The translations under genes were made by a program, and so were the position numbers. Shown here piece after piece: positions 20,065-54,916 of a stretch of DNA of 64,000 nt. The stretch lies in NCBI GenBank assembly GCA_048127485.1, contig JBHNWI010000006.1, positions 46,407,358 to 46,471,357 of the forward strand, read 5' to 3'. Positions within the stretch are counted from its first letter, which is position 1. The number at the start of each line of letters is the position of its first letter. Origin of the DNA: Solemya velum (Eukaryota). The notes beneath the pieces are model-generated. The model was not told the DNA's origin, did no database searches, and saw nothing but the letters and a program-made list of their open reading frames with translations.

Positions 20065-21510
20065 GTGAATGTAACAAAGTATATATCTTTTGCTGCATAT
20101 GTTATGGTGTCATTATGCTTGATAGGCCTTATTTCTTCAGAATACTACCGCCCTATTGCGCTCACTAGTTGCATTTGTAAAACCATGGAACGTATGATCA
20201 ATGATAGACTTGTCTGGTTCCTTGAATCAAATAAACTGTTAACCAACATTCAGTGTGGTTTCAGGAGCCAGAAAAGTACTACCGACCACTTGGTCAGACT
20301 AGAAACTTTTATTCGCGAAGCTTTTATTCGTAAAGAACATGTTGCATCTATCTTTTTCGATCTTGAAAAGGCATATGATACAACATGGAAATATGGTATT
20401 ATGAATGACCTGTTTGATATGGGTCTTCGAGGACTTTTACCTCACTTCATTAGCAGTTTTTTATATGATAGACATTTCAAAGTAAAAGTTGGGTCTACCC
20501 TTTCTGATCTGCATGATCAGGAAATGGGTGTACCACAGGGAAGCATACTATCTGTTACCCTTTTTAGTATAAAAATCAATAGTCTTGCGAAATGCATAGC
20601 GCCAGGAGCTGAGGGATCTCTGTATGTTGATGACTTCCTCCTGTGCTATCGATCAAAAAATATGAAAAGCATTGAACGTCAACTCCAGTTGTCGCTTAAT
20701 AAAATGCAAAAATGGGCTGACAATAATGGTTTTAAATTTTCTAAAGCCAAAACTGTTTGCATGCATTTTTGCCAATCACGAGGACTTCACCATGATCCCC
20801 AGTTATTTCTCAATGGCACAGCGATTCCTGTGGTAAAGGAAACCAAATTTCTGGGTATCATGTTGGGTCCCAAGTTAACTTTTGTACCTCATATTAGATA
20901 TTTAAAGTCAAAATGCCATAAAGCTATTAATTTGTTGCGAGTTGTAGCACATACCGACTGGGGGGCAGATCGTCAGGTTCTGCTCCGCCTTTATAGATCA
21001 CTTGTCCGATCAAAGTTGGATTATGGTAGTGTAGTCTATGGCTCAGCTAGAAAATCATATCTGAAGTTGCTCGACCCCATTCATAATCAGGGTCTTCGAT
21101 TATGTCTTGGGGCTTTTAGAACATCCCCTGCGGAAAGCTTGTTCGCCGAGGCCAATGAACCCTCGTTGTATCTTCGACGTAAAAAGCTTTCTTTGCAGTA
21201 TGCTACTAAGCTGTACTCAAACCCTGATAACCCTGCTTTTGACTGTGTTTTTAATCCCAAATATGAAGTTTTATTTGTACAAAAACCTAATGCTATTCCA
21301 ACTTTTGGTATACGTGTTGGTCCTGAACTTGCGGAAACTGGTATTGATGTTGATCAGATAGCTGCGAACTCGGTGCCGAGGTCTCCTCCTTGGTTGACAG
21401 CAACACCAAAAATACTTTTCGATTTGAACAAGTCAAAAAAGGCCACTACTGATCCACTTCTTTACCGTTCCCAATTTTATGAGCTTCGTGATACTTATAG
21501 AATTTTATAG
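20065..21510 (+). CDS. LINE pol, reverse transcriptase domain. The track ORF starts at a GTG; this is not a native start.
   Basis: Canonical RT blocks 1-7 of non-LTR elements. Confidence 0.85.
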   Translation: MNVTKYISFAAYVMVSLCLIGLISSEYYRPIALTSCICKTMERMINDRLVWFLESNKLLTNIQCGFRSQKSTTDHLVRLETFIREAFIRKEHVASIFFDLEKAYDTTWKYGIMNDLFDMGLRGLLPHFISSFLYDRHFKVKVGSTLSDLHDQEMGVPQGSILSVTLFSIKINSLAKCIAPGAEGSLYVDDFLLCYRSKNMKSIERQLQLSLNKMQKWADNNGFKFSKAKTVCMHFCQSRGLHHDPQLFLNGTAIPVVKETKFLGIMLGPKLTFVPHIRYLKSKCHKAINLLRVVAHTDWGADRQVLLRLYRSLVRSKLDYGSVVYGSARKSYLKLLDPIHNQGLRLCLGAFRTSPAESLFAEANEPSLYLRRKKLSLQYATKLYSNPDNPAFDCVFNPKYEVLFVQKPNAIPTFGIRVGPELAETGIDVDQIAANSVPRSPPWLTATPKILFDLNKSKKATTDPLLYRSQFYELRDTYRIL

Positions 21511-21512
21511 AC

Positions 21513-22307
21513 ATTTATACTGATGGATCAAGGGAGGGTGACCACGCGGCAGCTGCAATCGCAACTCCAACTGGCATCCTCTCTACAAGACTTCCTGACA
21601 AATCTTCTATTTTTACTGCTGAACTTCGGGCTCTTCATATGGCACTGGACTATGTAGAGGAGTCCCATGACAGAGAGTTCATTATTTTTTCGGACTCTGT
21701 CATGTTCACAAGCATTAAAAATTCTTTAAAGTTCAAAAATCCTATTATATCTAACATTCTTGCAAAGCACAGCTGTCTTCTCTCCCGAGAGAAGAGAGTT
21801 GTGCTTTGCTGGATACCCAGTCATGTCGGTACCCATGGTAACGAACGGATGGATTCTGCAGCTAAAAAAGCACTGAATTTACCCATAACTGATTACAAAA
21901 TATTATATACAGATTTCCAAGATTACATTTTTAAATACATTCGTACCATCTGGCAGTCTCATTGGAACGAGGCTACTTCTAATAAGCTTCACGACCTGAA
22001 GCCTATTTTAGGTGAATGGCGTGAAGCTTACAGGAACATTCGTCGTGAGGAGGTTGTACTGTGCCGATGTCGCATTGGGCATACCCTCCTCACACACTCA
22101 TTTATTTTGAAGGGTGACACTCAACCGCAGTGTGTTTCTTGTTGCTGTCCTTTGACAGTGAAACACATCATGGTTGAGTGTCCACATTTAGCCAGCAATA
22201 GAGACCGTTTTTACAGAGTCCGAACAATGCTAGACTTGTTCGGCTCTGTTTCTACCGACCAGATTTTAAATTTTTTAAAGTATACAAATTTCTTTTCAAA
22301 GTTTTAA
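21513..22307 (+). CDS. LINE pol continuation, RNase H plus CCHC zinc finger. It is frame-shifted relative to RT by one frameshift/stop near 21480-21512.
   Basis: Dx(TDGS), WIPSHxGIxGNExxDxxAK and CxxCx..HxxxxC motifs. Confidence 0.8.
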   Translation: MYTDGSREGDHAAAAIATPTGILSTRLPDKSSIFTAELRALHMALDYVEESHDREFIIFSDSVMFTSIKNSLKFKNPIISNILAKHSCLLSREKRVVLCWIPSHVGTHGNERMDSAAKKALNLPITDYKILYTDFQDYIFKYIRTIWQSHWNEATSNKLHDLKPILGEWREAYRNIRREEVVLCRCRIGHTLLTHSFILKGDTQPQCVSCCCPLTVKHIMVECPHLASNRDRFYRVRTMLDLFGSVSTDQILNFLKYTNFFSKF

Positions 22308-29269: not shown

Positions 29270-31830
29270 CCACAGGAACATTACCAGGAACCTACCATCT
29301 GAAGATTGATCCACAAGCCAAACCGGTTGTACACGCAGCCAGAGGGCAACCCGCTGCATTGCTACCTAGGATCACAGAGAAACTTCATGAGATGGGCACA
29401 TTGAGCATGTGCGCCACCCCACGGACTGGGTGAATTCCAAGGTTGTATCGACCCGCGGAGATAAGATAAGGATTTGTATTGATCCAAGTGATTTGAACCG
29501 CGCTATCAAGCGAGAACATTACACGATGAGGACACTCGAGGGAATCGTTAGCAGAAGCCCACACGGGAAACTGTGCAACAATGAACACCCCAATAGGAAG
29601 GTTACGATTACCGTTTGGTATCAAGTCCGCGCCTCAGCTGTACCAGCGAACAATGGACGAGCTACTTGAGGGCATCCAAGATACCTATGCCATAATGGAC
29701 GATATCTTGATCGTGGCCAAGGACAGAGCACACCATGACTTGGTCCTACAGCGTGTTCTTGAGAGAGCTGAGGAATACAACCTGAAGCTGAACTGGGATA
29801 GAGCCAAAATCCGCAAGCCGTGAATCGCCTATGTGGGACACCTCTCAACGGAGAATGGACTGTGCCCAGACCCGGCTAAGGACCAAGCATAGAGATGCCA
29901 GCCCCAGACTCGAAGGAAGCCGTGAGCCGGTTCCTAGGATTCGTAGGGTACTTAGCCTTGTTCCTGCCTATACTGGCTGAGATAGAAGTATCTCTGCGCA
30001 AACTCACAAAGGATGACGTACGTACTGTTTCACTCGGACGCTCCCCAGCAACAGGCGTTTGAAACTATCAGAGAGATTTGCTCGAATCACCCTGTGCTTA
30101 CATACTATGATGTGGAGAAACTATGCACTATTCAGTGTGACACAAACAAGCTTGCAGTAGGTGTTTTGCTACTGCAGTCAGGTAGACCAGTAGCGTATGC
30201 GTCGAGAAAACTGAGATCGTCAGAACAGAGCTTGGCTCCCATCGAGAAGGAGATGTTAGCCATAGTGTTTAGCACATAGTTTCGTGACTATATAGTGGAA
30301 AAGGAAACAAACTGGAGAACATCTTTCTTAAACCCCTGTCCTACGTGCCTCTGAGGCTACAGACCATGATGTTGAAAATCAAAGAGTATGACCTGTGTGT
30401 GCAGTATGTTCCAGGGAAAGAGCAAGTACTTGCCGACACGCTCAGTAACATCACTGACTCACACGAGGACGAGGAACTGAACATTAACATGCTGGAACGA
30501 ATTTCTGTATCGCCCCAGAAATACACAGAATTCAAGCAAAACACAAGCAAAACACATTCAAGCAAAAAACCATCTGGTACAGACTGGATGGCCGGACACG
30601 AAACAAGAGACACCTCACAGTGTCAGGCCGTACTGGAACGTACGACAGGACCTCGCTGCCCTAGATGGAGTCATCTACAAAGAAATGCGCATTGTGGTAC
30701 CACCGTCCATGCAGGCCACTGTGCAAGGACTGATCTACGAAACGCACATGGGCATTGTCAAGTCCAAGCAACTAGCCCGGGATTCAGTCTTCTGGCATGA
30801 CAGCTCAGATAGAGGAGAAAGTGGCAGGATGTGCGGTGTGCAAAGACTATGTGCAGAAACAAACGAAGGAGCTTTTGCAACCTAGCTCTGTACCTGACCT
30901 GCCGTGAAGCAAAGTCGCGTGAGCCCTATATATTGACTATAGACTACTACTCAAAGTTCATCCAAGTGTCCAAGCTACAGTCACTGACCGCAAAAAGCAC
31001 TTTGCAACACATGGCATATCAGAACGCCTAGTGACAGACTGTGGCACACTTGCGCCGAGTTTGTGAAGTTTGGCAGACTATAACATCAACCATGTGCTCA
31101 TCAGCCCGAAACACCACAGGCAAATGGCGAAGCTGAGATTGGAGTAAAAATAGTGAAGGGATTGTGGCGAAGTGCAGAGACAAATAGAAAGCACTCTCGA
31201 ACTATCGTGCCTAGCCGATCCCCGGCATTGAGCTTTCACCATCTCAGTTGCTCATTCATGTCCAGGCAATTGAGAACATCCATGCCTATTGCCCGCAGCG
31301 GACTTACCCCATTGCACAACAACCCAGATAATGTCAAAGCACACATGCGTCCCCAGAAGTAGACGCAAAAGAGTAACTAGGACTGCAGCTCCAAGACCTT
31401 ACACCTCTCAGACCAGGTGATTCAGTCCGTGTGCAGCCACATGACGGTACCAAACTATGGAGAACAGACAAGGTGATCAAGCATCACAGCACGCCATGTT
31501 CATATGTCGTGGAGACTGAGGCTGACAGAATCAGGCGTAACAGACGAGCACTGCTTGTCGTACCACCAGTGCTAACGCCAAGGCTCACCAGAGAGGCACC
31601 GCCTCCGGATGAGGACATTGCACCTGCCCCGAGAACAGTTGTGCCAGAGTCGTCAACTGCCACATCGGCCTCCACCCCCTAGCGCTGCACCACCTCCGAG
31701 GTCGCCAGCCCCTCATCTGAAGCCACCACAGAGAGCTGCCCAGACCTGCGAGGAAGTTCCACCTAACACCTACAGCACAACCCGAAGTGCGCCAACCTCA
31801 GAAGTTGAACCTTTAAGTTTGAACATCAAG
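29270..31830 (+). mobile_element. Degenerate LTR-retrotransposon pol (Ty3/Gypsy- or BEL-like) carrying RT, RNase H and integrase remnants with many stops and frameshifts.
   Basis: 'KIRICIDPSDLNRAIKREHYTMRTLE', 'FGIKSAPQLYQRTMDELLEGIQDTYAIMDDILIVA' (the YxDD motif), 'LTYYDVEKLCTIQCDTNKLAVGVLLLQ...PVAYASRKL...EKEMLAIVF' (RNase H), 'HMGIVKSKQLARDSVFW...ILTIDYYSKFIQV' (integrase), and C-terminal 'VRVQPHDGTKLWRTDKVIKHHSTPCSYVVETE'. Confidence 0.8.
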
Positions 31831-33440: not shown

Positions 33441-33789
33441 GTCACGTGGAAAAGCACCAGTTCTGTGTGTGTGTATGCGTGCGTGTGAATTTAAGAAACG
33501 CATGTATTGAAGCCCTTTATTATAACTGAACACACATTCGAAAACATCTGCAACAAATCTGACAAAAACATTTTGATGAGTGGTGGTGTTGAAATAGAAA
33601 TATATTGTTGAACTGAATCGAAAAGAACTGACAAAACAAATTATTTAACATAGAATCACTTGTGGCATATATTAGTAATGATTATTATATCACAGGAGCT
33701 TGATTATTATATCACAGGAGCTTGAAAGAGTTTGTTTTAGTAAAAGCTATTTAGTTAACACTGTGTCTCTTGGGCTTGTGAGAAATACT

Positions 33790-34031
33790 CTATGGAACCA
33801 TGGTTACACATTTCTTGGCCTCTTTCTTCCTTTGTGAAACTGTGGTTGGATGCGACCAAAGGGAGTCCGACGTGGCGAACTGGGTCATTCCTTTCACGGG
33901 TGAGGTATTGGGACGGGACGAAGTCTTGTAGGTATCCCGATATGTGGTGCAGAACTGCATCTTATCATCTTTCCCAAGGTCGCGATGCTCCGAGACTTGA
34001 CGGCATAGGTCGGATCGCTTGGCAGCTTCGC
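33790..34031 (-). CDS. Terminal coding exon of an uncharacterised minus-strand gene. Translation (G)EAAKRSDLCRQVSEHRDLGKDDKMQFCTTYRDTYKTSSRPNTSPVKGMTQFATSDSLWSHPTTVSQRKKEAKKCVTMVP*.
   Basis: atatacag| acceptor on the minus strand at about 34032-34033. The ORF runs to TAG at 33790-33792, phase-consistent with the upstream exon. Confidence 0.65.
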
Positions 34032-34717
34032 CTGTATATGAGTAATACATCATAAATGAAATAGTGTGATAAGAAATGAGCGTTCAATAATTCAGAGCCG
34101 TCCTACTGTAACCACATTTTTAATTCTTAAAGCTATTGAGCCCGCATGTACGCGATGCGCAAAGCGTAGTGCACAATGCGCAAAACGAAATGAACAAACC
34201 GCGTGAAAACCGGTGTGCGTGCTGCGTTGAATTACCTGGTAAGAACTGAAGGCATATGACCTCATGCAATGGAAAAATCCCTGTGGGTAAGTGCGTAGTT
34301 TCAAATGTTCGCTACATGTAGCGATCTTTCTATGCACTGCGCATCACGCACACGTGAAACCACTTCAACAGAAAACTTATATATGTTTGATTTATCACGC
34401 ATACACGCTACATTTTGCGCATCACGTACACGTGGGTTCATAGCTTGATACTCTACATAATACCATGTACAGTTTTCAATATATGACTATTTAGGCTGTT
34501 GGTTGCATTCCAATGGGTTATACACAGGTTCTTCTACCCAATTTTAGAAACTTATATTGCAGATATCGTGATGAAAACCTTCTAAAACAAGCTAATTGCC
34601 TTCCATCAATGGTTATTATGCACCGATGATTTTTCAAATATATCAATAATTAATAGTTCACAAATTGAGCCAAATTCATATGCAATCAACAAAACACAGT
34701 TTTGAGTGTATATGTAC

Positions 34718-34958
34718 CTTTGAAATGAGCTCTCTGTGTCGAAACCAGAAGCATTTTTTCACCGGGTGGCTCGTACTTGTACCTGATCTGGAAATCATTT
34801 GCCGGTTCCGCCCCAAGCCATTCCTGGAAGTCTGTTTGGTACCTGCTTGACCACTGGAAGCGAGAATCGCCAGGCTGATGTTTGATGATGTCCTCGTTCG
34901 CCTTACCTGGTCGGGACGGAGCTAGTGGGGTAACTAAGCCCGGGGGATCAAAATCCAC
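34718..34958 (-). CDS. Exon of the uncharacterised minus-strand gene. Translation VDFDPPGLVTPLAPSRPGKANEDIIKHQPGDSRFQWSSRYQTDFQEWLGAEPANDFQIRYKYEPPGEKMLLVSTQRAHFK.
   Basis: tttag| acceptor and GTACAT donor (minus strand). Matches the track ORF 34686-34958. Confidence 0.65.
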
Positions 34959-35656
34959 CTAAAATGTATTATGTACCGTTAAAAATACAAATAGATTTAA
35001 TTTTGGAGATTTATTTGTTTAAATATCTTTCAGTTTACTGGACTAGAGAACACACTACTGTGGAATATATTACTATCATTCATCAGACAGTATGGCATAG
35101 AAACACGAGCGAGTAGATAGAAAGGAGAGGCCATACGTATGCTTGGAATTCATGTGTTGTGAGAAAGCGAAAGAGTTGGTTCCTTGCAGTCAATCTTTGT
35201 ACTCAACTACTCTACGTGCACATACTGTGATAAGAAGTAACTCCCTGGAATGTATTAGTACCACCAGCGTGGTAAATACTCTAATAATTGTTACACCAGA
35301 GACATAACAGTTTAAACTTGCACATCCGATTTTCGTCATGAACTTCGATATCCGCATTGTTTGGACTGTTTTTAAGACGTTTCAACATAATTGAATAGTC
35401 AAATTCATTCAATGATATTACAGCCACATGAAACGTGTTAGACAACTTCAATTTGACCTATAAGCATCCCGACATAGCCGCGAGAAGAATATACGTGACT
35501 GTGACTATCCTTTAAAAATTAGATTGTTGTGTAAACTGTATACAAAACGAAAATGTTTATAAGAACTGAAAAAGTAACAATGATGTCGAGGCATTCGAGA
35601 GTGAGAATGCTTCGTTTGTGACTAGTCACTACAAAAACGTAAAAACTAAAATATAC

Positions 35657-35931
35657 CTTGTAAGTACTATCCATCACCATAGACAGAGACGGGCGTTTGT
35701 ACGCCTTGATGAGGGCCCATTTGGGTTTCTCTGGGGACTTCACGGGCCATTCCTTGAATGCTACGGATTTTTCTGTCCGCCCGTCAAAAGGGGCATCCAG
35801 AATTTGAGTTGATTGTGGGGGATGGCAACATTTCCGCCGACACACATCAAAGTGAGGTTTGAAATCAGCCATAAACGTTGAGACATTATCGAATGGCATC
35901 ATCACATCAACCATCGAAGTCTTTTTCCCAA
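35657..35931 (-). CDS. Exon of the uncharacterised minus-strand gene. Translation (L)GKKTSMVDVMMPFDNVSTFMADFKPHFDVCRRKCCHPPQSTQILDAPFDGRTEKSVAFKEWPVKSPEKPKWALIKAYKRPSLSMVMDSTYK.
   Basis: cttgtag| acceptor and GTATAT donor (minus strand). The split codon c+tt matches the phase-1 end of the upstream exon. Lies within track ORF 35519-36043. Confidence 0.65.
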
Positions 35932-36681
35932 CTACAAGACAAAAGGCATATTTAAAACGATCATATACACAGATATAATAAGATGAATAAGACCGCGCAC
36001 TAAGAATGGTAAATGTCGTCTGCTTAGCATAGCGGCAGCACACTCGTTTTGCAATATAGAGGTCTCGGGTTCAAGCCACGAAAATGTTCGGAGTTTGAAT
36101 TTCGGTCCCAAATCAGATTTTCAGAGTCTTTACGACATTAATGTGACCTACATTCCGCCGTACCTTGTTTGTGTCAGCTCGCTCTATTGGCGAGGAACGA
36201 TAAACATCACAGAAGATCATTGTACCCGACTTATTCTGGCTCAATCTCTTCCCCTCAAACAGTTAAATAGTTGTTTGACTAAACATGTTGGGGCAGCACA
36301 ATATGAAGATGTGTTCGTTTATATGTCTATGTGGCTGGCACATATGGGCTTAAGTCTAAGGTGTCATTAATTCAACCAATCAGCCGAAGAAACAAACAAC
36401 TTGAATTTAGGTTCACACATCGCATGTAAGTATCATTCTAACAACAAATCTGAGAAGAGTGAAATCTGGGAGCTTCATAGATTTGTAGAAACCTTAAATT
36501 CTGGAAAAAGTCACAGATTGCCATGGGAATAAAAGTTTATCAGGGTCAACACAGCATTCTCCCATGGAAAACACAAGAGCTAGAATCTGATAGCTTGGCA
36601 TCATTATACTGAGTGCATGTATGTTTCATAACCAATAGTAATGTTCCAAGTGGCCTATACAGAGTATGCAAATGTACTTAC

Positions 36682-36835
36682 GCGATTTTGAGGGAACTGG
36701 TGATTGTTTGCCCGACTCCCCGTAGTATTGCTTGTAGAGGGTTAAGCCATCGAACTTTCCACCTGAAGTTCTGTCCTGTTCCATCGGTTTGATCAACGGT
36801 GGGCGCGACACACCTTCAGGTTTCTTGTAGTCACT
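36682..36835 (-). CDS. Exon of the uncharacterised minus-strand gene. Translation SDYKKPEGVSRPPLIKPMEQDRTSGGKFDGLTLYKQYYGESGKQSPVPSKS.
   Basis: ccaacag| acceptor and GTAAGT donor (minus strand). Lies within track ORF 36626-36811. Coordinates corrected by +1 for the local indexing offset. Confidence 0.65.
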
Positions 36836-38226
36836 CTGTTGGAGGAAAATATTCTGTCGATATTACTAGAGTGTATTGAGTATTATGTCCAGCCCACGTG
36901 ATATAAAAGGAACACCATTAATTGCTAGTTACATTCCCAGATGCATTACAATAGCCCGGAATGCAATGGTTGATATGGTCATCAGATACTTCAAATAATG
37001 CGCCCCCGCAGCTCCATTGGCTCATAGTCCTACTACCCCAACATTTTTATCCAGATGATTCCAGCATTGGGGAAACATGATCGATAGCTATGTTTCTATA
37101 TGTATAATATCTGTAGAAGGTGAACCGTTGTTTTCTCCTAATGGCCGATGGACAGTTAGAGTATCGTGGTCACTGGGCTCTGAACCATCCAACTAAAGAG
37201 ATTTAGCCTCACTTGCAGTAAAACCAAATTTGCCATGCGAGGTCTGTCTCGATGCGAAGTTGTATGTTACTTTTGTCGTTACTGTGCTCTTTCTGTGGCC
37301 ACCGTCCTAATCCGACAATAACACTACACAGTTGACATTTTGCTATAGAGACATTATTCGCTTTACGGTTCAAGCCAACCCATCGGAAGTTTGGGCGAAC
37401 AGTACAGAATGTTGAATAGACGGACAACACACGGCCAAAAAAGGGCATTACTATGCTTACCTACGTTTTGCGCAATAAATTTGTATTAAAGGGATAATTC
37501 CACACCCAGTGTTGTAAACTAAATCATCACCAACAGTTACATTAAACTATTTCCCAACAATTTTTCACCACCCACCGGTTGTATTCTGCAAATATAGCCA
37601 ACTTTTGGGGGAGAATCCCCACCCATTTTTTCGGCTATCGGCAACACGTTTACATGTGTTCAAAAGACTGTGTCAACCAATCACAGCGGACTGGTAATCA
37701 TTTCGGGACGCCATTGTGTGACGGAGTGCGCACGCGTGCGAGGAAAGCACTAAAATCTGAAAATACACCGGTATTATGCGTTGCGTCATAATTCAGTTGT
37801 AACAGTCAGTAAGCAATACCGATAAATTTACTCGAGTAAATTTAAGAAAAAGGTCTTCGATAGAGCTAGTTAAAGGTAGACCCTGACCTTTGCTACGCGG
37901 CTACAGTCGACACTCATGGAGGGGTTATCAAAACCGCAAGTACCAACATAAAGGAAGTTACTGGGATTTGGGTGTGGAATTATGGCTTTAACAACGTGAT
38001 CGACCTGCTTGTGTGAAAGATGTCGGTGACTCGCTACTTTCTGGTGTTTCTTATCGTGGGTTTACACAGTACAAACCACATCACGCCGACGGGACCTAGT
38101 GGCTCATAAAGCAATGGAACACGAGCCTCCTGAACAAATACTAACCAACCATGACAGACAGACATGCAGTCGGGAATTCATATACTTTTTACAATTCAAT
38201 ACGATTTCTGAAAATATTCAACAAAC

Positions 38227-38415
38227 CTGCACGGTGGACTCGCCATCGAACTTGCACATTTTGTTTATGTCCAGGGACTCTCGGTGCGTGTCAACTTTGG
38301 GTTTACAGAACTTCCTGGTGTTCTTGTCCGCCTGCTGGTATGAAGTTTGGTAAACCGACCGAACATTGAACGTGGTTGCAGGTATTTTGTATTTCATATT
38401 CGGCTTGTACGACAT
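38227..38415 (-). CDS. First coding exon (ATG at 38413-38415 on the minus strand) of the uncharacterised gene. Translation MSYKPNMKYKIPATTFNVRSVYQTSYQQADKNTRKFCKPKVDTHRESLDINKMCKFDGESTVQ.
   Basis: ATG preceded by tttctag| acceptor (which implies an upstream 5'UTR exon) and followed by a GTTTGT donor. This is track ORF 38218-38415. Confidence 0.6.
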
Positions 38416-39587
38416 TGTTCTATCAACATCCTAGAAAAAGGGGATATTATTATACATAATATGCACATGCATATACTAATAACTAGGATGTGACACAAGA
38501 AGACGATATCATCACATATCTTCCGCTACTACTTATGAAATATTTTTTATTCAAACATGCTACTGCTAGGTCCTTCATAAACGGATAATCGAAGTGTTCT
38601 AGCCTGGGATATTTGCCATTGGATCTGCTCCCTCAGGGACTAGTCCACCCTCCTAGCTAACACCTGTCACCTCCTAGATGGTATTGACATGTGTGTTGAG
38701 TGAAACTATCTGGCACGGTTTTAGAACCTAATGCTCCAGAAACTACGGACCTTTGTTGTTGTTGATGTGTTGTTATTGGTTTTTATTTTTTGTGGAGGGG
38801 GGTATTCGTATCCATCGTAACAGAACATATTGAAAATAAAAACTTGCCCATAGCAGAAGACACAATTAGATCATTAGGTCCTTATGTGTGAAAAAAAATC
38901 ATTCCGTTATCTTTAGCGCATTGGGACTTATGATCCGGAAACAGCAATTTTCATAATTTCGAATATCTGCTTCCATAGTGACAAAGAACTTGTTAAAACG
39001 AAAACATGCTGAGAGCAAAGGGCATTACTAGACAACTGTTTTATGATGTTATCTTCAACGGTTTTGGAGTTATGCCCCGGACACCATCAAAATTGGCTAT
39101 TTGTTTCTATGGTAACAGAAAAAAGTGTGGGAATTAAAAACTTCCAAATAGCAAAAAACACTATTAGACCATTTGATTGACATGTGTACGAAGTCTCAGG
39201 AAGTTATCTTGAACGGTTTTGGAATCATGCTCCGGGAACGCTGTCTGACAGCACGAACAGTGCTCAATTTTATACCCCGTTGCGAAGGATAAAAATATTG
39301 AGAAGTCAAAGATTTTTAATCTTTATTTTCCTCAATTTCCATAATGAACGCTAGGTATTCCCGACTGAAGGGTCGCTGGCTATGGTGCACTCTCGGTATT
39401 TCGTCTAATGTCGATGGAATTTGTAAAATAACATGCAATTATCATGCTACCTTTGGAATCGTTTGGCCTATTATTTTTTATATTAACCTTGAAAGACCAA
39501 GACTGGACAATACAAATCGCAGTGGATGGCAGTTAGACTTCTCAGTGCACAATGGTATCCTGTGGTATTTATCTACACCTCCATCGG

Positions 39588-39848
39588 CAGGGGCGGATCC
39601 AGGATTTGCGCAAAGGGGGACGCAGACCCCAATCGGCGAGCGTCGAAGGCGCGGAGTCTTTGTGCGGAGGGTCTGAGGGACCTCCCCCAGGAAAATGTGA
39701 AAATCCGTAATGTCAAATACGCGTTCTCCTGGGATCTGAGAGCTGGAATTTAAGAGTAAAAAAAAATACTCTCTGAAAAAAACGTTAGTGTGCCGAAATA
39801 AGGAGGGCGCGCGCCGCGTCGCGTGCGCCCCCGCTAAATCCGCGCCTG
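39588..39848 (-). mobile_element. MITE copy C of a ~250-bp family (TIR CAGGSGCGGAT...), flanked by a perfect 5-bp TSD ATCGG. It is inserted into a LINE 3' fragment.
   Basis: 'atcgg|caggggcggatcc...ccgctaaatccgcgcctg|atcgg'. It is the reverse complement of copy A (47920-48174). Confidence 0.85.
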
Positions 39849-39857
39849 ATCGGTGTT

Positions 39858-40200
39858 TTACTACTTTTATACGACTGCAACTCGAATACGCATCAGAAGT
39901 ATGGGATGGATATGGGATACTGAACACAGACCTTTTAGAAAGGATCCAAATAGAAATGGCAAGAATAGTAATTGGATTACCAAGCCATACAAGGAAACAC
40001 ACTGTTACAAAACGGGGTGGGAACCATTAGTGAATAGGCGGGAAAACAGACAACTAATTTTAATCTATAAAATAATAAATACCCCAGTACCCGACTATCT
40101 CTTAGATAGTTTGCCGACAGAAATAAATGCAAGGGCAACTTACAACTTAAGAAATAAGAATAATATTGACGACGTTCGTCCATACTAATTACAACATAAA
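39858..40200 (+). mobile_element. 3' terminal fragment of a CR1/L2-type LINE (C-terminal conserved tail of the pol ORF).
   Basis: 'FIRLQLEYASEVWDGYGILNTDLLERIQIEMARIV...GWEPLVNRRENRQLILIYKIIN' resembles the CR1-like 'LEYCVQ.W.P...KD...LE.VQRRA...LGLFSLEKRRLRGDLI.VYK' tail. There is one frameshift near 40020. The sequence upstream of the MITE (39480-39587) may continue the same element. Confidence 0.6.
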
Positions 40201-42654
40201 TTTGGAACCAATTACCCGCTTCGGCGTGAGATGTTAGAAGTCTAAATGCTGTTCAAAAATGCCTACAGAATACTGACCATAAGCTTGCTCCTAACTACTA
40301 TTACATTGGAAATAGACAACTACAGATTTTCGTAAAATCCACCTCGCTGATTCTCCGGTTCGTTCGTGTGGTCAGGCTCCAGAAACAGCTTCACGTTATT
40401 TAGCATTCTGTCCACTGATAAGCAAAACCTACTTTTAACAACACATATATCGAACAATAATTACAGCATCTCACTAAGGGGATCGGGGGATTTGAGCAGC
40501 ATGGAAAACCAGGCTATAAATATTTAAAAGTACAAACATATATAAAGGAAACTAAACGCTTCTGAAATGAAAATATCAGCAATCCGGAGACCCCCCTCCT
40601 CACATCACACACCACCCCTCCCTCTCACACCCCTACTCCTGCACTCAATATCTTTACTGTATTTTAATTATATATTTATGTATATGTAATACACATATAT
40701 CAAAATTACCTGTTCATCTGTTTTTAATCTGTATGCGGGAAAGGGCGTTCATAAATAGAAACATTTGCTGACCATTTTGACAATAAAACTTTATCAAACA
40801 AAAAAAAATTTGTTGTTTTAATTTTAAATAGATGTCATAACTACATTTGAAACGTCTCATAATTTTGAAAAAAAAAATGATCATCAATTTTACACTTCGT
40901 TTACAACTCGTTCTGTTAGTGTCCAGTCACATCTAACCAAAACACGTGAAGACGTTGACTGACGATACTGACAACAAGATTATAGCCGAAAACTATTGGT
41001 TATATCTTTTCAAGCTACACAAAGCATAAAGGATTTCGCGATAGTTTATATTTTTATTAAAAAGTTACGACTAGACCAAAGGAAACTTGTTATCACAATG
41101 ACCTCAATCGCTCAATGCCAAGATCATCTTGGTTCCAAAAATTGTGTCTCTCCGTGAATTGAGTCACTCCCTATGTATATTAAAAACATAAAAACATAAA
41201 AACATATATAAATAAATATACTATGATTCAGACATCAAAACACACATAAATGAGTTGAGGTCAATGCCATAGTGATTATATTAACCAATGTGACCTTGAC
41301 CTCTCAACACAGTAGGGAACACCATACCATAGACCCAAACGGATATATGTCAAACGGCATTGGATCTAGTCGAGTAGTGCCTAATTAAATTGTTCACAAA
41401 AGAATATGAGCGTAGGGTTTAAACTAAATTTGCCTCAGATATGGACTTTATAGGTATAGCTGTATAAAAAATGTGTGACTAACCTTGGGGAAGAACTCCA
41501 CATCATAGGTTGTCCTTGTGTGCATAGACGCCGCCATTGGTTCAAAATCTATCTTTCTGCAATCAGCTTTTTTCTCGATCTAAAGATAACAAATCGCGTT
41601 AGATGCATAGAAAAGGGACATGCTAGGTCTGTCTAAAATCTACCAAAGCAATATGCAAAGTTACTATACACGCACAATTAAAGTTGCGCTTACCCTTTAC
41701 ATAGTTAAGGCCTGTTAGATGTCCTGCCCTGGCACGGTACTATAGGGCACAGTATTTGGAGCCTAGCCTTCTCTTCTGTCTACATCTTCCATGAATGACC
41801 AGGTACTCATTCACTGCTTGGTACACAGGGAGTGCTTAAAGCCGCTGGCCCCTGGCACTCCAACCACTGAGTCGACCACGGCGCGGCTTCACTCTCTAGC
41901 ATGGTGTGTACTCAATGTCTTTTCGAATAAACTTGATTCCATTTTATGATTCTTAGATGAAAAATGTATCTTTCTCTCTTTATGCCCATCCTTCGGGGAC
42001 ACTTGTTCTATCGGCGGGGTCTCGCGTTCTTTCACTTTCTTGTGTAGTTACGTTGCCATGCATACGGATTGGTGTCTTTTAGTTTGCGATTCTGGCAGTT
42101 GGGTAGCTAGCTGATTTCATGGCACCTTAGTCCTGAGCCCATATGTACCAGCCACAATGACAAACATATGGACACAACTATATGCTATGTCGACACAGCA
42201 TGTTAAATCATACCAGTAGATGAATGCATCCGTTGATCATAAAGATCTCTGTTTCAGTAGGAGGCGACCAGTCCTGTTGCATTTTGCAAATGTCAGCATT
42301 GGTATATATCACCACGAAACTCGGGTCTGTCTGCTAACATTCAACTTGAAGTACTTTAATACCTTACAGTGGTCCCATCCTCCCAATACCCAAAGGGAAC
42401 GCAATATTGTACCACCCAAAAACCCGAAACACTACACAATGTAACCCATAATTATTCTACCTGATGAGTTGTGAAATCTTCACGATAAATTGTTTGCAAA
42501 TCCAGTCCACCAATCACTTCCGAACGCTGAACTGGTGGTCTTATACAGTCACACGGTTTTTGATAGGGCCAATTTTGATAAACCTTGAAATATAAAAACG
42601 TATATTTGATTCTTGTTTTTCTTGTACTAAAAAGTATAATTAATAAAATACGAT

Positions 42655-43030
42655 AACATCAGGTTCGTTGGTTGGTTGGATAGAAGACCTTAGACCTTCA
42701 GACCCATATGTCCGTGAAAGAAAGGGAGAGAGAGAAATAGTAAAAGACGGATACAGATGAACCTGGATACAATATCCCACTTTTGTTCCCGATATAGCCA
42801 CATACTTCTTTACATTGCTGTAAGTTGGTATGTAAACGGAAATCTCAGCCTGGTAGGTCGGTTGGTTGGTTGGTTGTATAGAAACCGTGGGCCGTAGAGC
42901 CATATGTTTGTGAAAAAGAGGAGAGTGAAAGACGGATACAGATGAACCCGGATACAATACCCTACTTTTTCTCGATAGAGCCATCTGGTTCTTTAACATA
43001 CTCGGTACAGAGCACCGATACACTGGTCTT
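42655..43030. repeat. Tandem duplication, 2 copies of about 185 bp each. Each unit begins with a (GGTT)n tract.
   Basis: '..cgttggttggttggatagaagacc..agaccttcagacccatatgtccgtgaaagaaaggg.gagag..a.agacggatacagatgaacc.ggatacaata.ccc.acttt' repeated. The spurious ORF 42640-43023(-) lies across it. Confidence 0.8.
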
Positions 43031-44159
43031 CGGTTTAAAGTCTCATAAGGTCACCCCGAGATTATAGAGACCTCTGAAAATCTGACCGACACCGCGGAGC
43101 TGCTAGCTATAAATAGCGAGAAGACAGGTCATTCGAAGGAAATTTCGAAAACGCAAATTATGCAACAGCCTTGGATATTGTTATCTGCGAAAAAGAAACG
43201 CCGAGGAAAACTTGATGTGATCTCGGTTGGTTACTTTATTAGCAAACCTAAATTGACTAATATTAAAATCATCAATTGGGTTTGGCCACAAATTCTTGAA
43301 CTTAGGATCGACCTCACTAGTACATCGAGATAACAAATAAAGTTGCCATATCAGTTGGAATATGCGGGTGACATGAAGGTACTATCTACACCTATCGACA
43401 TAAAATATTACAATAGTAATAGAAGATGTGCCATATACTCATTTAGTTTAATAATAACTTAATGATAGTGAGGTTCTGGAGATATCGTAGATCAGTGAAG
43501 CCGAGGCCAACTACAGTCTTGAGTTTTGTCGTCAGTTGCGTTGACGTTAATGATCAATGAAACCAAACGGTTAGCGATGAATAGTATTAGTGAGCTACTT
43601 GGCTGAGGTTTCTGTTCACACTCTGACCTACGGCACAGTTACGTGCTCAATGTAAAGAACGGATACACAGGACATCGGTTTATAGTCTCATCTGAAAGAC
43701 ATATGTCTACAACACAAAAAGTTGGAAGTGTTGTGATTGAATAGGCCTACATGCCATCGAATAAAACTTGATTTTCTGGTAAATTTTGGACAACCTTTAG
43801 GGGTCCCTTGCTATAATAAAGAGAATTTTCTCGGAAAGAGATGTCTAGATGCAATTTAAACTCACCGCAGAAAAAGAAACGAATGAAAAAAATTACCCGA
43901 AACATTTTAGAAATAAATAGACCGGAAATAAGAAGATGATTTTTTTTAATTACATCTCCGAAATGGTATGCTAGTTTAAAATGAGTTTCTTTGGGGTTGT
44001 TCAAGATTTATATATGCAACTACTTTTGAATAGACTGTTCAGTGATAGTAAGATAGTTTTTGTAGATTTCAGAATAGTTTAGTATCATGAGACGACTTGT
44101 CTTGTAAAAAATCTGGTTAGTGCTTTCTCCATCATTTTCTTGAACTTGAAGACTCTTTG

Positions 44160-44445
44160 GGGCATCCGTGGCAGAGGGGATAAGGCCCTGCGCTCAACGT
44201 CTAATTCCGATGCCTCTTACATCTCAACGGATCCGAGCCCCGGTTGTAGCAAGGTTTGTATCAAGCAAACTTGTTTTAACTGCGGAAGCATCCTGGGTTT
44301 ATGAGAAAGCTGTCTTCAATGGTCGCAAGCTCTTTCCGTCTACTTCTAGACAGTTTCTTCCTCCTGCTGCTCGCACCGACAGGAGCTTACATAGCCGCAA
44401 TTGTGCTGAACAAACCTCTAAAACAAATCATGCTACGTACTACGT
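44160..44445 (+). repeat. SINE family B, full copy.
   Basis: 'ggcatccgtggcagaggggataaggccctgcgctcaacg...ggatccgagccccggttgtagcaag...' then a body shared with 4270-4618. Partial copies at about 2215-2365, 27590-27725 and 62285-62365. Confidence 0.75.
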
Positions 44446-45399
44446 AGTCTTGTTGCATTTTTCATATTAATTTGTAGCATATGTAATGTGTGGTCATGAT
44501 GCAATTCAAACCAGTAGCATGAGAACTAAAATATTAAAACTAATGAGAAAGTTCAACACAGTTATAGTCTGTCCCAAGACACTGTTCTCATGTTTTCTAT
44601 GTCTCGAGTTCGAGAGTGAAAAATGTATATCAACAGCTGTACACGACTTGTTTCTGGGATTATTTTTGGTGATTCGCGGCTGCCAGGTTCTCCTCACTGT
44701 GTGTTCACGAGCGGGTTCTTCCTCCACCAAGTTCCACCGACGAAGGCCTAATGTTCGATATAGTGATTGAACACAAACCTCCCAAGAGAAATAATTACCA
44801 ACCAACCAAGACAATGGGGAGAATATCTAAAACTAAACTAGCATTCTACATCCAAATTATAACGTATTGTTGAAGTGACATTGCGAAGATATACAGTTTT
44901 CAGATTTCAAAACGCCGCCATATTCTTTCCTAATGGTTAATTTTCAATTTAGAAAAAAAAAACAGCAAACTTGACTCACCGACTGATACTCCGAAGTGGT
45001 GTTATCATCAACATTCAATATTGGTTTGGCGGTTACTGTCTTAGGATCACAGCCAGGTATTTTATTTTTCAAACTGAAATAGTTTTACAAATAGTCAGTT
45101 TGAAGTCCAAATTTAATCATATGTAATATATTGAGAGCAGATCAATAAAATTGTATAAATATACTTTCCACCTGAAGGCTGAAGAACAATTTTGCGGCGT
45201 TCCATATTTGACGTAGAAGTATAATAATTAAAACCAAACAGATTGAAGAAACAAATGAAAATTGAGTTGTGATTAGTTAGTAAATATACCTGTGATGAAT
45301 TTTCAATAAACCATCATCAAAATTTTTCAAAGCTACCATTGCGAGAACATCCAGTAACTGCAGCTAACATACCCTTGCCATCACATCACCTTCATGATA

Positions 45400-45545
45400 T
45401 TTTCACTTGTGACGTCGTATTAATTAGTGACGTCATAGTTATGAGCGACAACACTGTGTCGTACGAAATAATTTCGTTGATCACGTCGTGTGCTGAGTTT
45501 CGTACCAAATTGTACTTTCGTGCAATAATACGTCCGACGAATCAC
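45400..45545. promoter_or_regulatory. CpG-containing cluster of CRE-like motifs: TGACGTCG at about 45410, the perfect palindrome TGACGTCA at about 45428, and CACGTCG at about 45483.
   Basis: Motifs read directly. No gene assigned. Confidence 0.2.
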
Positions 45546-46559: not shown

Positions 46560-47570
46560 GTTCCAAAAGTGTACACCAGAATAACTAAACGATGTTTTAA
46601 ATAGTTCTATATGTATCTCGGGTAAATCAAATTCCTGTGTGTTGATGATCTCAAGTTATGTGAATTACAGTGCGTAACAGAAAATTCATTCTGTAGATAT
46701 TCAGGCGTAAGGTTACGAATGGTTTTATATACAAGATTACCAATGTGATATTTACATCTATAAGGTAAGAATGACTGGTTTAAATCCTTGAACATATCAA
46801 TCGATGGTGTTAACTGAGGTTTGTTCAAAATCATTCGTGCTGTTTTCTTTTGTAATTTGGTAAGTCGTTCAGTGTGATTTTTAGTTGATAAGCCCCAGAC
46901 TACAGATCCATAATCCAGTATGGAGTGATATAGGCATAATAGAATAGTAGCTGACTTTCCATGTTTAAGAATTTGCTTATTCGGCGAAAAAATCCTAGTT
47001 TGGATGAAAATCTTTTACAATCGCTATCAACTTGTTCATTCTAAGTGAGATATTCATCCACATACACACCTAGTATTTTTTGAAAATTAAGAGATGAGAT
47101 ATTATTGCCACCCATTGCAAGATTAAGAAGATCATCTTGCTTTACCATGTTTTTAGTACCTAATAGCACACATGTAGGTTTTGATGGGTTCAGGGCCATA
47201 TTATTATTAGAGTACAAAATATCAATTTTGTCAATACCATTCTGTAGTTTTTCTTCGATAACAGAGCAATTTTTGCCATCAGCATACATGTCAACATCAG
47301 CAGATTTTGTTACAAGTGGCAAATCGTTTATAAATAGAAGAAATAAAATTGGACCTAGGGTTGAACTCTGTGGGACACCAACCGTTACATTCAAAGAGGA
47401 AGATTTCATATCACCTACTTGAAGATGTTGTTTTCTATTCTGTAAATATGACTCTATTAGGTTTAAAACGCTACCGGAAAATCTATAAAATTTCAGTTTC
47501 CATAACAATATGTTATGATCTACCATATCAAACGCTTTCTTCAGATCGAGGAATACAGATTCCCAGAAGC
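46560..47570 (-). mobile_element. L2-clade LINE fragment carrying the RT C-terminal half and the characteristic 3' tail.
   Basis: ORF 47041-47526(-) 'GVPQSSTLGPILFLLFINDL...MYADGKN' (RT). ORF 46607-46834(-) '...YRCKYHIGNLVYKTIRNLTPEYLQNEF...HNLRSSTHRNLIYPR' resembles the L2 tail 'RI.FK.L.L.YKAL.G.AP.YL..LL......R.LRS'. Confidence 0.75.
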
Positions 47571-51707: not shown

Positions 51708-53277
51708 GTCGTTCCGGCCCCAAACCGTCGGCGTCCCGCAGTCGTTCCGTCCCCAAACCTGGCTGACCCCAGTGGATCCGTCCCCAGTCGATCCGTCTCC
51801 AAAGTATAAATATAAATCAAAGGTATATATGCATAATTTATTAACGAATTAAATATTCACAAATAAGAAATATATACATTTCAACAATTTCAATATCTTT
51901 TAGTGCTGTCATGAGTTAACCCGATAACGTCCACGTTCGAAGACGTTTACACCAAAAACGTCTACAAAAATTGTACAAAACGTCCACAGTTTTAGTCGAG
52001 AACGTCTACAAAAAATTGATAACAGCTACAAAGGAAAAAGACTAGAATAGTTATTATTTTTTTTTAATAACATCGTTAATTTTGTTTTCAAACAGCATAT
52101 TATTCATCATTTATATAAACAGCATATTATCTATCATTTATATTAACAGCATATTATATATCATTTATATCATTTCATTAATAAACGGGCAATGGCGGCC
52201 ACAGTCTGTCTAGGTGTAAATTCTTTAGCTTCGTACCGTCCCCAAATACCATGAAGGGTCTCATTGAAAGTTCTTGTTTCTTTCCGGGAAATCCTGAGAT
52301 TTGATCGTCGGCAGCTTGTTAAGAGATAGTAATCAAAACAGTTGGCTATTACATATTTCAATATCAAGTGGGAATGATTTTAATAAGTACATTGTATTAT
52401 TAAATTTACAGCAACACAAACACAAAACAAAAACATTATAAGAAATGTGTAAGGCCTAAAGAAAGGTAGCTCAAAACGGCAACAGATTTTATTCACAATC
52501 AATGTTTAGACATACAACGCATACTACAGAAATAATTCTACCTCAAACAATTTCAACAACCTCACTGTTATACAATATATCAATTTTACATGTTTTATTT
52601 TTCAAACTTTATAGCAGGTGACCTTTTTGTAGACGTTATGAACTATTTTGTAGACATTTTGGTGTGGACGTTTTGGTTTATACATTTTTGAACGTGGGCG
52701 TTATGCGCCCCTGACATTTCGGTTAGTTCGTTCGGTCACGTTTCAATCTTCTTCAACAGTTGGCGTCGCAAAAGGCTCCCCGCTGCAGTGAGAGAGGCGG
52801 AGGTTTTGAGTTTGGCTTATTATTGTTGTTTCAGTCATGTCGGTGATTAGTGTTAATTGGTCTTTGAATATACTTCCGACACAAAGCTGAGTGAGCTTAT
52901 TTTTGTTTTTTCAGTCATGTCAGCATTGATGAGTTAATTTTAAGTTATTGAAAAAAAAAGATTGTTTTTATCGAAATTGAATTTTAACCATCACAAAATA
53001 AGAGTTGCTGTTGTCATGAAACAATTTTCATTTAAAACTGTTAGGTTATTTTTCTTGTTTCCGTTTTCTAAGATATAAGATATATATTTCTTTCCTAAAA
53101 TATTTTCATATTTTACTGCATATTTCAATGCACATTTAATTTAATTTGTACATCGAAAATATCTATAAACATAAGGGGATGGATCGACCACGGTAACTGT
53201 GGTCGGACTTGACTTGGGGACGGATTGACTAGGGATGGATCCACTGGTGACGCAGCGACCTTGTGGCCGGAACGACC
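51708..53277. mobile_element. Foldback / long-TIR non-autonomous DNA element of about 1.57 kb with no transposase ORF.
   Basis: The left terminus 'ggtcgttccggcc...ccagtggatccgtcccc agtcgatccgtctcc' is mirrored by the right terminus '...ggggacggattgactagggatggatccactgg...ggccggaacgacc'. A second inverted pair lies inside: 51945-52030 'acgtccacgttcgaagacgtttacacc aaaaacgtctacaaaaattg' versus 52600-52700 'cctttttgtagacgtt...tgaacgtgggcgtt'. Confidence 0.7.
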
Positions 53278-54916
53278 CTAAATCCTCAATAAGTAGTCAG
53301 AGTTCTCCAACCCTCGCCCTAGGCTAAACCATAGGTGCTCGACTACAGGGCAGAGTCTATTAATTCTTTCACATATACATTCTGTAGAGACCACCTCTAT
53401 ATAAAGAAAACTTGTCTACAAAGACCACTTAATTTCAGTCCAAACAAGTTAAATTAGGTACAATTTAACTTGCATATAATGACCACCTGTACATTGAGAC
53501 CACTTTTGTATGATCCCCTGGGTGGTCTTCATAGACAAGTTTGACTGTATTACACTGAAAGCTGATGGAAACAAAGTATTGGCATGGAAATATATTTTAT
53601 TACTAATTTTATAACATTATGAACTGTATCCAAGCATTATTATACATTACATGTAGTTAACAACGAATAAATGCGATTAACATAAACACACTTATGTACA
53701 TGTATAGACAGAAAAAACCTGCAATCATCCGCAAGCCACCAACAGCTTTCTAACAAGCGAGTTCAAGATGACTCTGCTGTTGAAACAAAGTTTGCTCAAA
53801 ACAAACCTTGCCACCAGTGAGGCTTAAACCTGGAACATTGAGATGTGAGAGATGCCGGAATTATATGCTGAGATCAGGGCCTTATTCCCCCAGCTACGAC
53901 GGAGGCCCCCTAACCAAATACTATTAACATGAAAACACATGTGTACATACACACAGACTCTGTATCACACAGCCTAGACATAATACACATACATTAGTTA
54001 ACAAACATAACAAGAACATGTCCAACACACACACATAATCAATCTACCCTAGAGATACAAATACAGACATGTTCACAAATAACCTTGATAAAACATAATC
54101 AGTGGCAGGGTGGGTGCGTAAAGATTCTTCAATCCACTAATCCTTCCCGCTTCACCATATATACCCGAGTTGACTAGCTCATTAACATAAAAATGACTAG
54201 TGAGTATTTCATTCTTCTGCAATCGATTCACTATGACTAACCTCAATTCTACTGTTATTACAACATGAACATACAGTCAACGTTTATTTGGACATGATAG
54301 AAACATATTACATGTATGATACTCCAATAAATTTATTTATGTGAATTTATAATTATTCAGTTTGAGATCAAAGTTTATCACTTACAGTACAAGGAAAATA
54401 CAAATGCCAATAAAATATAAATAAATAGATTGGATGGATTCTCTATTTTATAGGCTGTGTTGATGCTAATGTTCGATATATTCACTGAAAAATCATTCCT
54501 TTCTTGCTTATTTAGCATACTTCAAAAATTGTGTGTTGAGGGATTATATAAGTCTTGATTTGGTGTTGGGTCAGCTGCCTTTGAGGCATGGGCACACTCT
54601 AGTCACATATTGCTCTATCTGACCGATCATTTTTGGCCATTTTATTGTGCAATTTGTGTAGGGTCAAGTCTTTATCGACTAGGGAATACCAACTGCTGAC
54701 GAACAACTCCTCCTGGCAACTGTGAGAATCTGTACAAAAGCTTCTTGTCGACTTTCAGTTTTGGGCACTCTCTCAACAAGAGTTTTCTGTCATTTCCATT
54801 CAATGTTCCCCCACTGTAGGTTTCCTTCCTTCTGTTACATAAAACAGCACCCTGGAAATAATTCAATGAACTTTCTAAGTTTCCACTAATCTATCATGAC
54901 TGATTGGGGTTATGAT

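Follow-up and report, generated by a model that had tools for sequence, protein, structure and literature searches.

A nine-exon SAXO/MAP6-related gene of Solemya velum and its product, a probable 12-unit Mn-repeat microtubule inner protein

Introduction

Filamentous proteins of the SAXO (stabilizer of axonemal microtubules) type carry arrays of the Mn motif, whose minimal signature, [TS]-[TS]-x4-[YF], corresponds to a helix of approximately 7 residues (PMC10973386). SAXO1 of bovine sperm is a filamentous microtubule inner protein (MIP) whose Mn motifs bind the luminal tubulin interface; it runs along individual protofilaments of the B-tubule and of the endpiece singlets, and with 12 motifs it could cover 96 nm (bioRxiv 10.1101/2022.09.29.510157). 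SPM1 and FAP363 bind likewise, through Mn motifs in the lumen and along protofilaments (bioRxiv 10.1101/2022.09.29.510157), and all three are described as luminal proteins (PMC10973386; bioRxiv 10.1101/2022.09.29.510157). In TbSAXO, microtubule binding, cold/nocodazole stabilisation and flagellar targeting require the MnL repeats, which also suffice for them, and the Cys motif is dispensable (PMC3280300). Twelve Mn units have been reported for mouse SAXO1 (PMC3280300) and 12 Mn motifs for the bovine protein (bioRxiv 10.1101/2022.09.29.510157). Here we describe a gene of this kind in the protobranch clam Solemya velum. It lies on the minus strand of a 64,000-nucleotide stretch, hereafter the window (assembly GCA_048127485.1, contig JBHNWI010000006.1, positions 46,407,358 to 46,471,357), and is an ordinary though divergent member of the known SAXO/MAP6-related family.

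Results

Gene structure

An initial annotation of the window, made from its sequence, had outlined a five-exon gene of 366 amino acids (aa) running from an ATG to a TAG. A protein search with this 366-aa translation returned a 100%-identical match to ScPMuIL_000164, an entry of 492 aa. The upstream exons were placed by tblastn of ScPMuIL_000164 on the window combined with reading of the DNA. The resulting gene spans 45339..33790 on the minus strand and comprises nine exons, all GT-AG and with the frame kept throughout. Joined, they amount to 1479 nucleotides (nt), and their translation, 492 aa long, agrees at every residue with the NCBI entry "hypothetical protein ScPMuIL_000164 [Solemya velum]". 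A search for contigs encoding exactly this 492-aa protein found none on record. The exons are the following:

Exon 1, 45290..45339, minus strand: annotated ATG at 45339, in the context CGCAATGG; encodes MVALKNFDDGLLKIHH plus 2 nt; 100% identical in tblastn; GT donor.
Exon 2, 44980..45073, minus strand: aa 17-48; first part of Mn core 1.
Exon 3, 42461..42583, minus strand: aa 49-89; end of Mn1 and the whole of Mn2 (TIYREDF, 42493-42473).
Exon 4, 41484..41579, minus strand: aa 90-121; Mn3 (TTYDVEF, 41513-41493).
Exon 5, 38227..38430, minus strand: aa 122-189; Mn4 (SVYQTSY, 38358-38338) and the start of Mn5.
Exon 6, 36682..36835, minus strand: aa 190-240; end of Mn5 and Mn6 (TLYKQYY, 36742-36722).
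Exon 7, 35657..35931, minus strand: aa 241-332; Mn7 (STFMADF, 35881-35861), Mn8 (TEKSVAF, 35776-35756) and the start of Mn9.
Exon 8, 34718..34958, minus strand: aa 333-412; end of Mn9, Mn10 (SRYQTDF, 34847-34827) and Mn11 (STQRAHF, 34742-34722).
Exon 9, 33790..34031, minus strand: aa 413-492 and TAG; Mn12 (TTYRDTY, 33948-33928); TSP at the position of the relatives' CP motif.

The five exons first outlined (189, 154, 275, 241 and 242 nt; 1101 nt encoding 366 aa plus TAG) stand, with their splice sites and frame, but they are the last five of nine, and the proposed start is internal, so that 126 aa were missing from the N-terminus. Exon 5 extends 15 nt 5′ of the presumed initiation codon at 38415, to 38430, and is preceded by an AG acceptor at 38431-38432. 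The 15 nt (GAT GTT GAT AGA ACA) encode DVDRT in the same exon, and homologues align unbroken across the Met residue (RT/MSYKP versus RTEPYKT and RTKSYAP). The upstream acceptor and the continuous alignment together identify this ATG as an internal Met codon.

Of the added exons, exons 2 to 4 hold residues that are invariant in the scallop proteins, namely SEYQ..Y..WP.Q.P, T.Y..D...H and TTY.V.F.PK. In exon 2, NKIPGCD is aligned to scallop NQIPAWD and SEYQ is invariant; the exon 3 region (42592-42455) is matched in tblastn by homologues from Haliotis, Mytilus, Owenia and amphioxus, with E values from 1.5e-6 to 0.025; and TTY.V.F.PK of exon 4 is invariant across the mollusc alignment. The best conserved part of the gene is exon 7 (PFDG.T...WPV..EKP.WA), where the scallop tblastn match reaches an E value of ~1e-22.

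Family assignment

In hmmscan, the 366-aa piece matched the Pfam family SAXO1-2 (PF05217, formerly STOP) with 35.4 bits (E=8.3e-9) and the 492-aa protein with 37.9 bits (E=1.5e-9), the curated gathering score of the family being 26.5 bits. No other Pfam family appeared at E<=10. By the definition that Pfam applies, the predicted protein is a member of PF05217, and its entry in the source database already carries this tag; the statement in the initial annotation that no family could be assigned does not hold. Its impression of SAXO/MAP6-like Mn repeats was borne out by the score above the Pfam cut-off, by a profile match to bovine SAXO1 and by the register of the 12 repeat cores (below). A homology search, which it had proposed as a check, gave SAXO1-2 as sole Pfam family and the identical 492-aa NCBI entry.

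Profiles were needed to reach SAXO1 among proteins of solved structure, since the 366-aa single sequence matched nothing in the PDB by phmmer at E<=10. A profile of the Solemya protein and three scallop relatives matched bovine SAXO1 (8ou0_D) with E=7.6e-12. A second profile, composed of the nearest relatives that keep an N-terminal Cys motif, gave the following PDB matches:

8ou0_D, bovine SAXO1: E=2e-49
7miz and 7tnq, Toxoplasma SPM1: E=6e-6
9e78, trypanosomatid DMIP1/STOP family protein: E=0.0065
9e2g, trypanosomatid STOP axonemal protein: E=0.022
6u42, Chlamydomonas FAP363: E=0.15 (weak)

The Mn-repeat array

All seven repeated short motifs listed in the initial annotation are present, but the real count is 12 regular units, three of which lie in the upstream exons. 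When one S/T is allowed, cores of the form [ST]-x5-[YF] are found at aa 44, 79, 112, 146, 186, 221, 258, 293, 329, 370, 405 and 441, with a mean spacing of 36.1 aa (sd 2.3) that agrees with the figure of '~8 nm/40 aa' quoted for SAXO proteins (PMC13087473). The strict signature [TS][TS]x4[YF] occurs six times in the 492-aa protein versus 0.98 times in shuffled sequences (P=2e-4), a 6-fold enrichment. The tripeptide F[DE][GN], prefix of the longer motif of Dacheux et al., occurs four times versus 0.18 expected from shuffles, and the longer prefix [KP]-F-D-G-x-[ST] is carried by 4 of the 12 units.

The register of the units was examined in an alignment of 24 sequences from molluscs, an annelid, echinoderms, cnidarians, Trichoplax, a fluke and vertebrates (SAXO1/2). 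Throughout the 12 units, position 1 is S/T in 67-100% of the sequences and position 7 is aromatic in 96-100%. Since all 12 cores are in register across the 24 sequences, the Solemya protein is a collinear 12-unit SAXO protein. The criteria for SAXO proteins sensu Dacheux et al. 2012 (PMC3280300) were checked one by one. They describe an array of Mn-like units with conserved S/T and F/Y, each consisting of a ~15-aa motif and a ~18-20-aa inter-repeat (PMC3280300), and the 12 units of the Solemya protein form such an array. The calculated isoelectric point (pI) of the 492-aa protein, 9.19, is basic like that of the founder proteins (8.25-9.05; PMC3280300).

Structure prediction had also been proposed at the outset. 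AlphaFold2, run on the 24-sequence alignment, predicted no fold (mean predicted local distance difference test score, pLDDT, 49; predicted template modelling score, pTM, 0.16), as expected for the Mn-repeat class. Three of the five short helices in the model fall on Mn1, Mn4 and Mn12, and a 3-residue turn falls on Mn5. As far as a low-confidence model can tell, this outcome matches the reports for Mn-repeat proteins (PMC10973386, PMC13087473).

Three phase-0 introns, at 44980/42583, 38227/36835 and 35657/34958 (between aa 48 and 49, 189 and 190, 332 and 333), cut the 7-residue cores of every fourth unit (Mn1, Mn5 and Mn9) at almost equivalent positions. The presence of introns in every fourth core hints at an old duplication of a 4-unit block. 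A division of the present protein into three 4-unit blocks was unsupported: block-to-block Smith-Waterman comparisons gave z values of 1.9-3.0, and the alignments were not all in register.

Relatives and phylogeny

An exhaustive profile search yielded 303 cluster representatives at E<=1e-3, and names were looked up for 30 of them. They include bivalves (Mytilus, Saccostrea, Mercenaria, Sinanodonta and four scallops), gastropods (Haliotis, Lottia), annelids (Owenia, Capitella), the brachiopod Lingula, the nemertean Tubulanus, echinoderms (Antedon, Asterias, Strongylocentrotus), hemichordates and amphioxus. The Solemya protein is 35-37% identical to the four scallop proteins and ~20% identical to vertebrate SAXO1/2. 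The blocks STQRAH, CRQ.SEHR and TTYRDTYK are kept between protobranch and pteriomorph bivalves.

A bootstrapped neighbour-joining tree of 39 sequences, the only tree method used being this distance method, split the family with 81% bootstrap into two groups:

Group A: the Solemya gene within a mollusc clade (95% bootstrap), one Owenia copy, Lingula, Tubulanus, ambulacrarians and amphioxus.
Group B: vertebrate SAXO1 and SAXO2, cnidarians, Trichoplax, a fluke, a millipede, and second copies from Owenia, Haliotis and Asterias.

The Solemya gene did not cluster with vertebrate SAXO1/2. The second Owenia protein, which is nearer to vertebrate SAXO1/2, was found when relatives bearing the Cys motif served as query. 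Owenia, Asterias rubens and the genus Haliotis have one member each in groups A and B, and two SAXO paralogues appear to exist in invertebrates. No vertebrate was seen among the named group-A-like matches, in a sampling that was non-exhaustive. Outside the molluscs, group-A proteins retain the N-terminal Cys motif, which in animals has the form CICQICxCGRHxCPH, as well as the CP motif and the C-terminal GHxFF. The mollusc clade of group A has neither the Cys motif nor GHxFF, and Solemya additionally has TSP for SCP.

Two sea-spider proteins, KAG1663059 of Nymphon striatum (2266 aa) and CAM1331508 of Pycnogonum litorale (5512 aa), contain 21 and 41 stretches, respectively, that match the mollusc SAXO profile (E ~1e-107 to 1e-111). 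Either these are giant proteins built of SAXO repeats, or tandem genes were fused in the models; as genuine proteins, they would carry Mn arrays many times longer than any described.

Base composition, flanking features and neighbourhood

The initial annotation had contrasted a CpG-rich locus with a CpG-depleted MVP gene next door. The ratio of observed to expected CpG dinucleotides (o/e) over the window is as follows:

33790-45339 (gene body): 0.87
Coding sequence of the SAXO-like gene: 0.85
45.3-53 kb: 0.94
1-18 kb: 0.37
22.4-28 kb: 0.25
53-64 kb: 0.43

The contrast stands (0.87 versus 0.25-0.37), but MVP and the SAXO-like gene are not direct neighbours, with a decayed retroelement at ~29.4-31.8 kb between them. 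At 12452-12835, the plus strand has an open reading frame (ORF) that matches the Pfam domain MVP_shoulder (E=2.4e-12), and this exon identifies the low-CpG left part of the window as the MVP gene, on the strand opposite to the SAXO-like gene. In invertebrates, less-methylated, dynamically regulated genes have been distinguished from methylated housekeeping genes (PMC4378018), and the contrast within the window fits this pattern of methylated housekeeping versus sparsely methylated genes (PMC4378018). Both the reading of high CpG as 'unmethylated' and expression in testis or ciliated tissue, proposed in the initial annotation, are plausible. A second low-CpG domain, 53001-64000 (o/e 0.43), begins ~8 kb upstream of the SAXO-like gene and suggests another germline-methylated gene; the ORFs tried there had no Pfam match. 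The high-CpG stretch also holds retroelement remnants. Those recognized in the window are:

20065-22307, plus strand: ORFs of 481 and 222 aa with RVT_1 and RNase_H.
30013-30279, plus strand: RT_RNaseH_2 fragment in the GC-rich stretch between MVP and the SAXO-like gene.
47041-47526, minus strand: sub-threshold RVT_1 fragment upstream of the SAXO-like gene.

The ORFs at 20065-22307 are located within the low-CpG MVP region and lift the local o/e to 0.64-0.84.

Two sets of putative control signals flank the gene:

45410..45435, no strand assigned: putative promoter elements, a cAMP response element (CRE) palindrome, TGACGTCA, at 45428-45435 and an ACGTCA half-site at 45410-45415.
33516..33521, minus strand: AATAAA polyadenylation signal 269 nt 3′ of the stop codon, the probable 3′ end.

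The two promoter elements are 13 bp apart, ~70-95 bp upstream of the annotated ATG, with the palindrome at a distance of ~90 bp. The palindrome has 1 full match in the 64-kb window versus 0.7 expected. CRE/CREM-type control is typical of mammalian spermatid genes.

A scan for repeats detected nothing in the gene region beyond small intronic ones without apparent bearing on the gene. Between exons 4 and 5, the 3-kb intron contains a 174-aa ORF at 39478-40002 (minus strand) without a Pfam match, adjoined at 38896-39235 by a family of 43-nt direct repeats ~150 nt apart; together they are probably an unclassified repeat element. The presumed 3′ untranslated region carries an exact 22-nt tandem duplication at 33681-33724 on the minus strand (CAAGCTCCTGTGATATAATAAT twice).

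Discussion

We consider it likely that this nine-exon SAXO/MAP6-related gene encodes a filamentous MIP that stabilises axonemal microtubules from the lumen by means of its 12 Mn units. The 492-aa product would be a basic, largely unfolded linear array. As a short helix, each Mn core would dock at the tubulin interface of a single protofilament from the luminal side, and with one unit per 8-nm tubulin dimer the extended chain could reach up to ~96 nm inside axonemal microtubules. By analogy with SAXO1, SPM1, FAP363 and TbSAXO, the Solemya protein would follow a protofilament inside the microtubule and stiffen or stabilise the lattice. The setting may be the sperm flagellum or the cilia of gill or larva.

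Several observations weigh against this reading. Some concern the gene model and its control: exon 1 (16 codons) is the least certain exon and rests on annotation and signals, as does the probable 3′ end of the gene, and near the gene start there is no strict RFX X-box, only loose A/T-rich matches. Some exon upstream of exon 2 is required, since exon 2 has no Met. Others concern the family definition. The Solemya protein exceeds the PF05217 cut-off by a modest margin, and its scallop orthologues fall short of it, with 21.3 bits or no match. Proline amounts to 8.1% of the residues versus 11.6-20% in the founding SAXO proteins (PMC3280300), high Pro being a compositional trait rather than a strict criterion. 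The remaining points are terminal motifs. The SAXO N-terminal motif 1 is [GR][KT]CVC[ESR][LI]CTCGK[HC][KR]C (PMC3280300), and the annotated Solemya N-terminus has no such Cys cluster. The C-terminal GHxFF is missing as well, and the Cys-Pro expected at the last Mn-like unit is replaced (RPNTSP versus RPKSCP in relatives).

The lack of the Cys cluster is shared with the scallop, mussel, oyster and abalone orthologues. A missed Cys-cluster exon was sought in all six frames of the 64-kb window and none was convincing; the one place where C.C..C.C matched, 54033-54010, is a TG-rich low-complexity stretch that runs into a stop. The mussel orthologue is encoded by an uninterrupted full-length ORF on a 1736-nt contig of the Logan assembly of run SRR34257100, most simply explained as a transcript. 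At positions 68-76 of this contig, an in-frame TGA lies 6 nt upstream of the ATG. The mussel stop codon and the failure to find a Cys-cluster exon in the window together argue that the Cys-less N-terminus of molluscs is genuine and not an annotation artefact.

Loss of terminal motifs may have altered targeting, and the protein could be an Mn-repeat microtubule binder acting outside the axoneme lumen, at a cytoplasmic, centriolar or neuronal site like MAP6 or MAP6d1. The loss of both the Cys and GHxFF motifs in the mollusc clade, with the in-frame stop in the probable mussel transcript, would agree with such a shift, as would the retention in molluscs of a canonical group-B SAXO (Haliotis), by which the ancestral function in the axoneme could be served, and the fact that MAP6-family Mn proteins act outside cilia. 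However, flagellar targeting of TbSAXO needs the Mn repeats only, not the Cys motif (PMC3280300), the Solemya protein retains all 12 units and their spacing, and the solved relatives SAXO1, SPM1 and FAP363 are luminal. We therefore regard a non-luminal role as unlikely and favour luminal binding. Still less probable, to a degree that makes it a marginal alternative, is a relaxed or decaying SAXO duplicate that is losing its microtubule function. Long branches, with identities of 37% to scallops and ~20% to vertebrate SAXO, the loss of terminal motifs and a Pfam score just over threshold are what such decay would produce. Against it, the 492-codon ORF runs uninterrupted through nine exons whose splice sites are canonical, each of the 12 units retains the diagnostic S/T and aromatic positions, STQRAH, CRQ.SEHR and TTYRDTYK are conserved from protobranch to pteriomorph bivalves, and the mussel orthologue has an intact ORF on a transcript-like contig. 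Membership of another short-motif MIP family (STPG/SHIPPO, CIMIP/FAM166 or SPMIP), listed among the alternatives in the initial annotation, is effectively refuted: those families also bear short aromatic-rich repeats, and isolated Mn-like units occur in other MIPs (PMC10973386), but at E<=10 Pfam gives SAXO1-2 alone, with no match to any of them, and the alignment with SAXO proteins is full-length and collinear over 12 units.

No new kind of biology follows from the gene. What had been a 'hypothetical protein' of S. velum gains a name and a testable function, and its gene model is corrected from 366 to 492 aa. Of most interest are what appears to be a second SAXO paralogue of bilaterians and the loss, specific to molluscs, of the two terminal motifs. 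With somewhat less than even confidence, we propose that group A is an ancient paralogue, present in lophotrochozoans, echinoderms, hemichordates and amphioxus and not found among vertebrates, which shed the Cys and GHxFF motifs in molluscs and kept its 12 Mn units. If this is true, the group-A protein could occupy other protofilaments, or another type of microtubule, than the canonical SAXO of the same genomes, and the molluscs would offer a natural experiment on the role of the terminal SAXO motifs. A copy that has lost both motifs and kept 12 of 12 tubulin-binding units gives a comparative handle on lumen binding versus targeting.

Among described systems, the Solemya protein is most like SAXO1 and SAXO2 (FAM154A/B; bovine 8ou0 chain D), with which it shares the 12 Mn units in the same order and register, the ~36-aa spacing, a length of ~470-490 aa, a basic pI, the lack of a globular fold and significant similarity at the profile level. 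It differs from them in lacking CICQICxCGRHxCPH, GHxFF and CP and in belonging to the other paralogue group. Its orthologues in Pecten, Mizuhopecten, Argopecten, Ylistrum, Mytilus, Saccostrea, Haliotis rubra, Mercenaria and Lottia are named 'SAXO1-like', 'SAXO2-like' or 'uncharacterized'. Those aligned (scallops, Mytilus, Saccostrea and Haliotis rubra) have the same collinear architecture and an N-terminus without the Cys motif, but scallop, mussel and oyster keep SCP after Mn12, where Solemya has TSP, and the scallop proteins have a ~35-aa insert between Mn6 and Mn7. The closest relatives outside molluscs are the other group-A proteins (Owenia CAH1785214, Antedon XP_071949293, Branchiostoma XP_035674561 and Tubulanus XP_074641400), which have the C-terminal-half blocks WPV..EKP.WA, YEPP.EK and TTY..TY in common with Solemya but keep the Cys, CP and GHxFF motifs.

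The luminal MIPs SPM1 of Toxoplasma and FAP363 of Chlamydomonas, together with the axonemal microtubule stabiliser TbSAXO, are likewise filamentous Mn-repeat proteins and provide the mechanistic model. They are distant in sequence and differ in unit number (6 in TbSAXO), and SPM1, FAP363 and the trypanosome proteins were matched by the profile of Cys-motif relatives only, not by the mollusc profile. Finally, MAP6 and MAP6d1, the STOP proteins, have an Mn-type microtubule-stabilising motif in common with the Solemya protein, and the Mercenaria orthologue bears the automatic name 'microtubule-associated protein 6 homolog'; no vertebrate MAP6 was among the named matches looked up. MAP6, described in vertebrates, has few (3-4) Mn modules, which overlap with calmodulin binding, and a palmitoylated N-terminal Cys cluster, whereas the Solemya protein, with no Cys cluster and with 12 regular units, departs from MAP6/STOP proper and has the architecture of SAXO.

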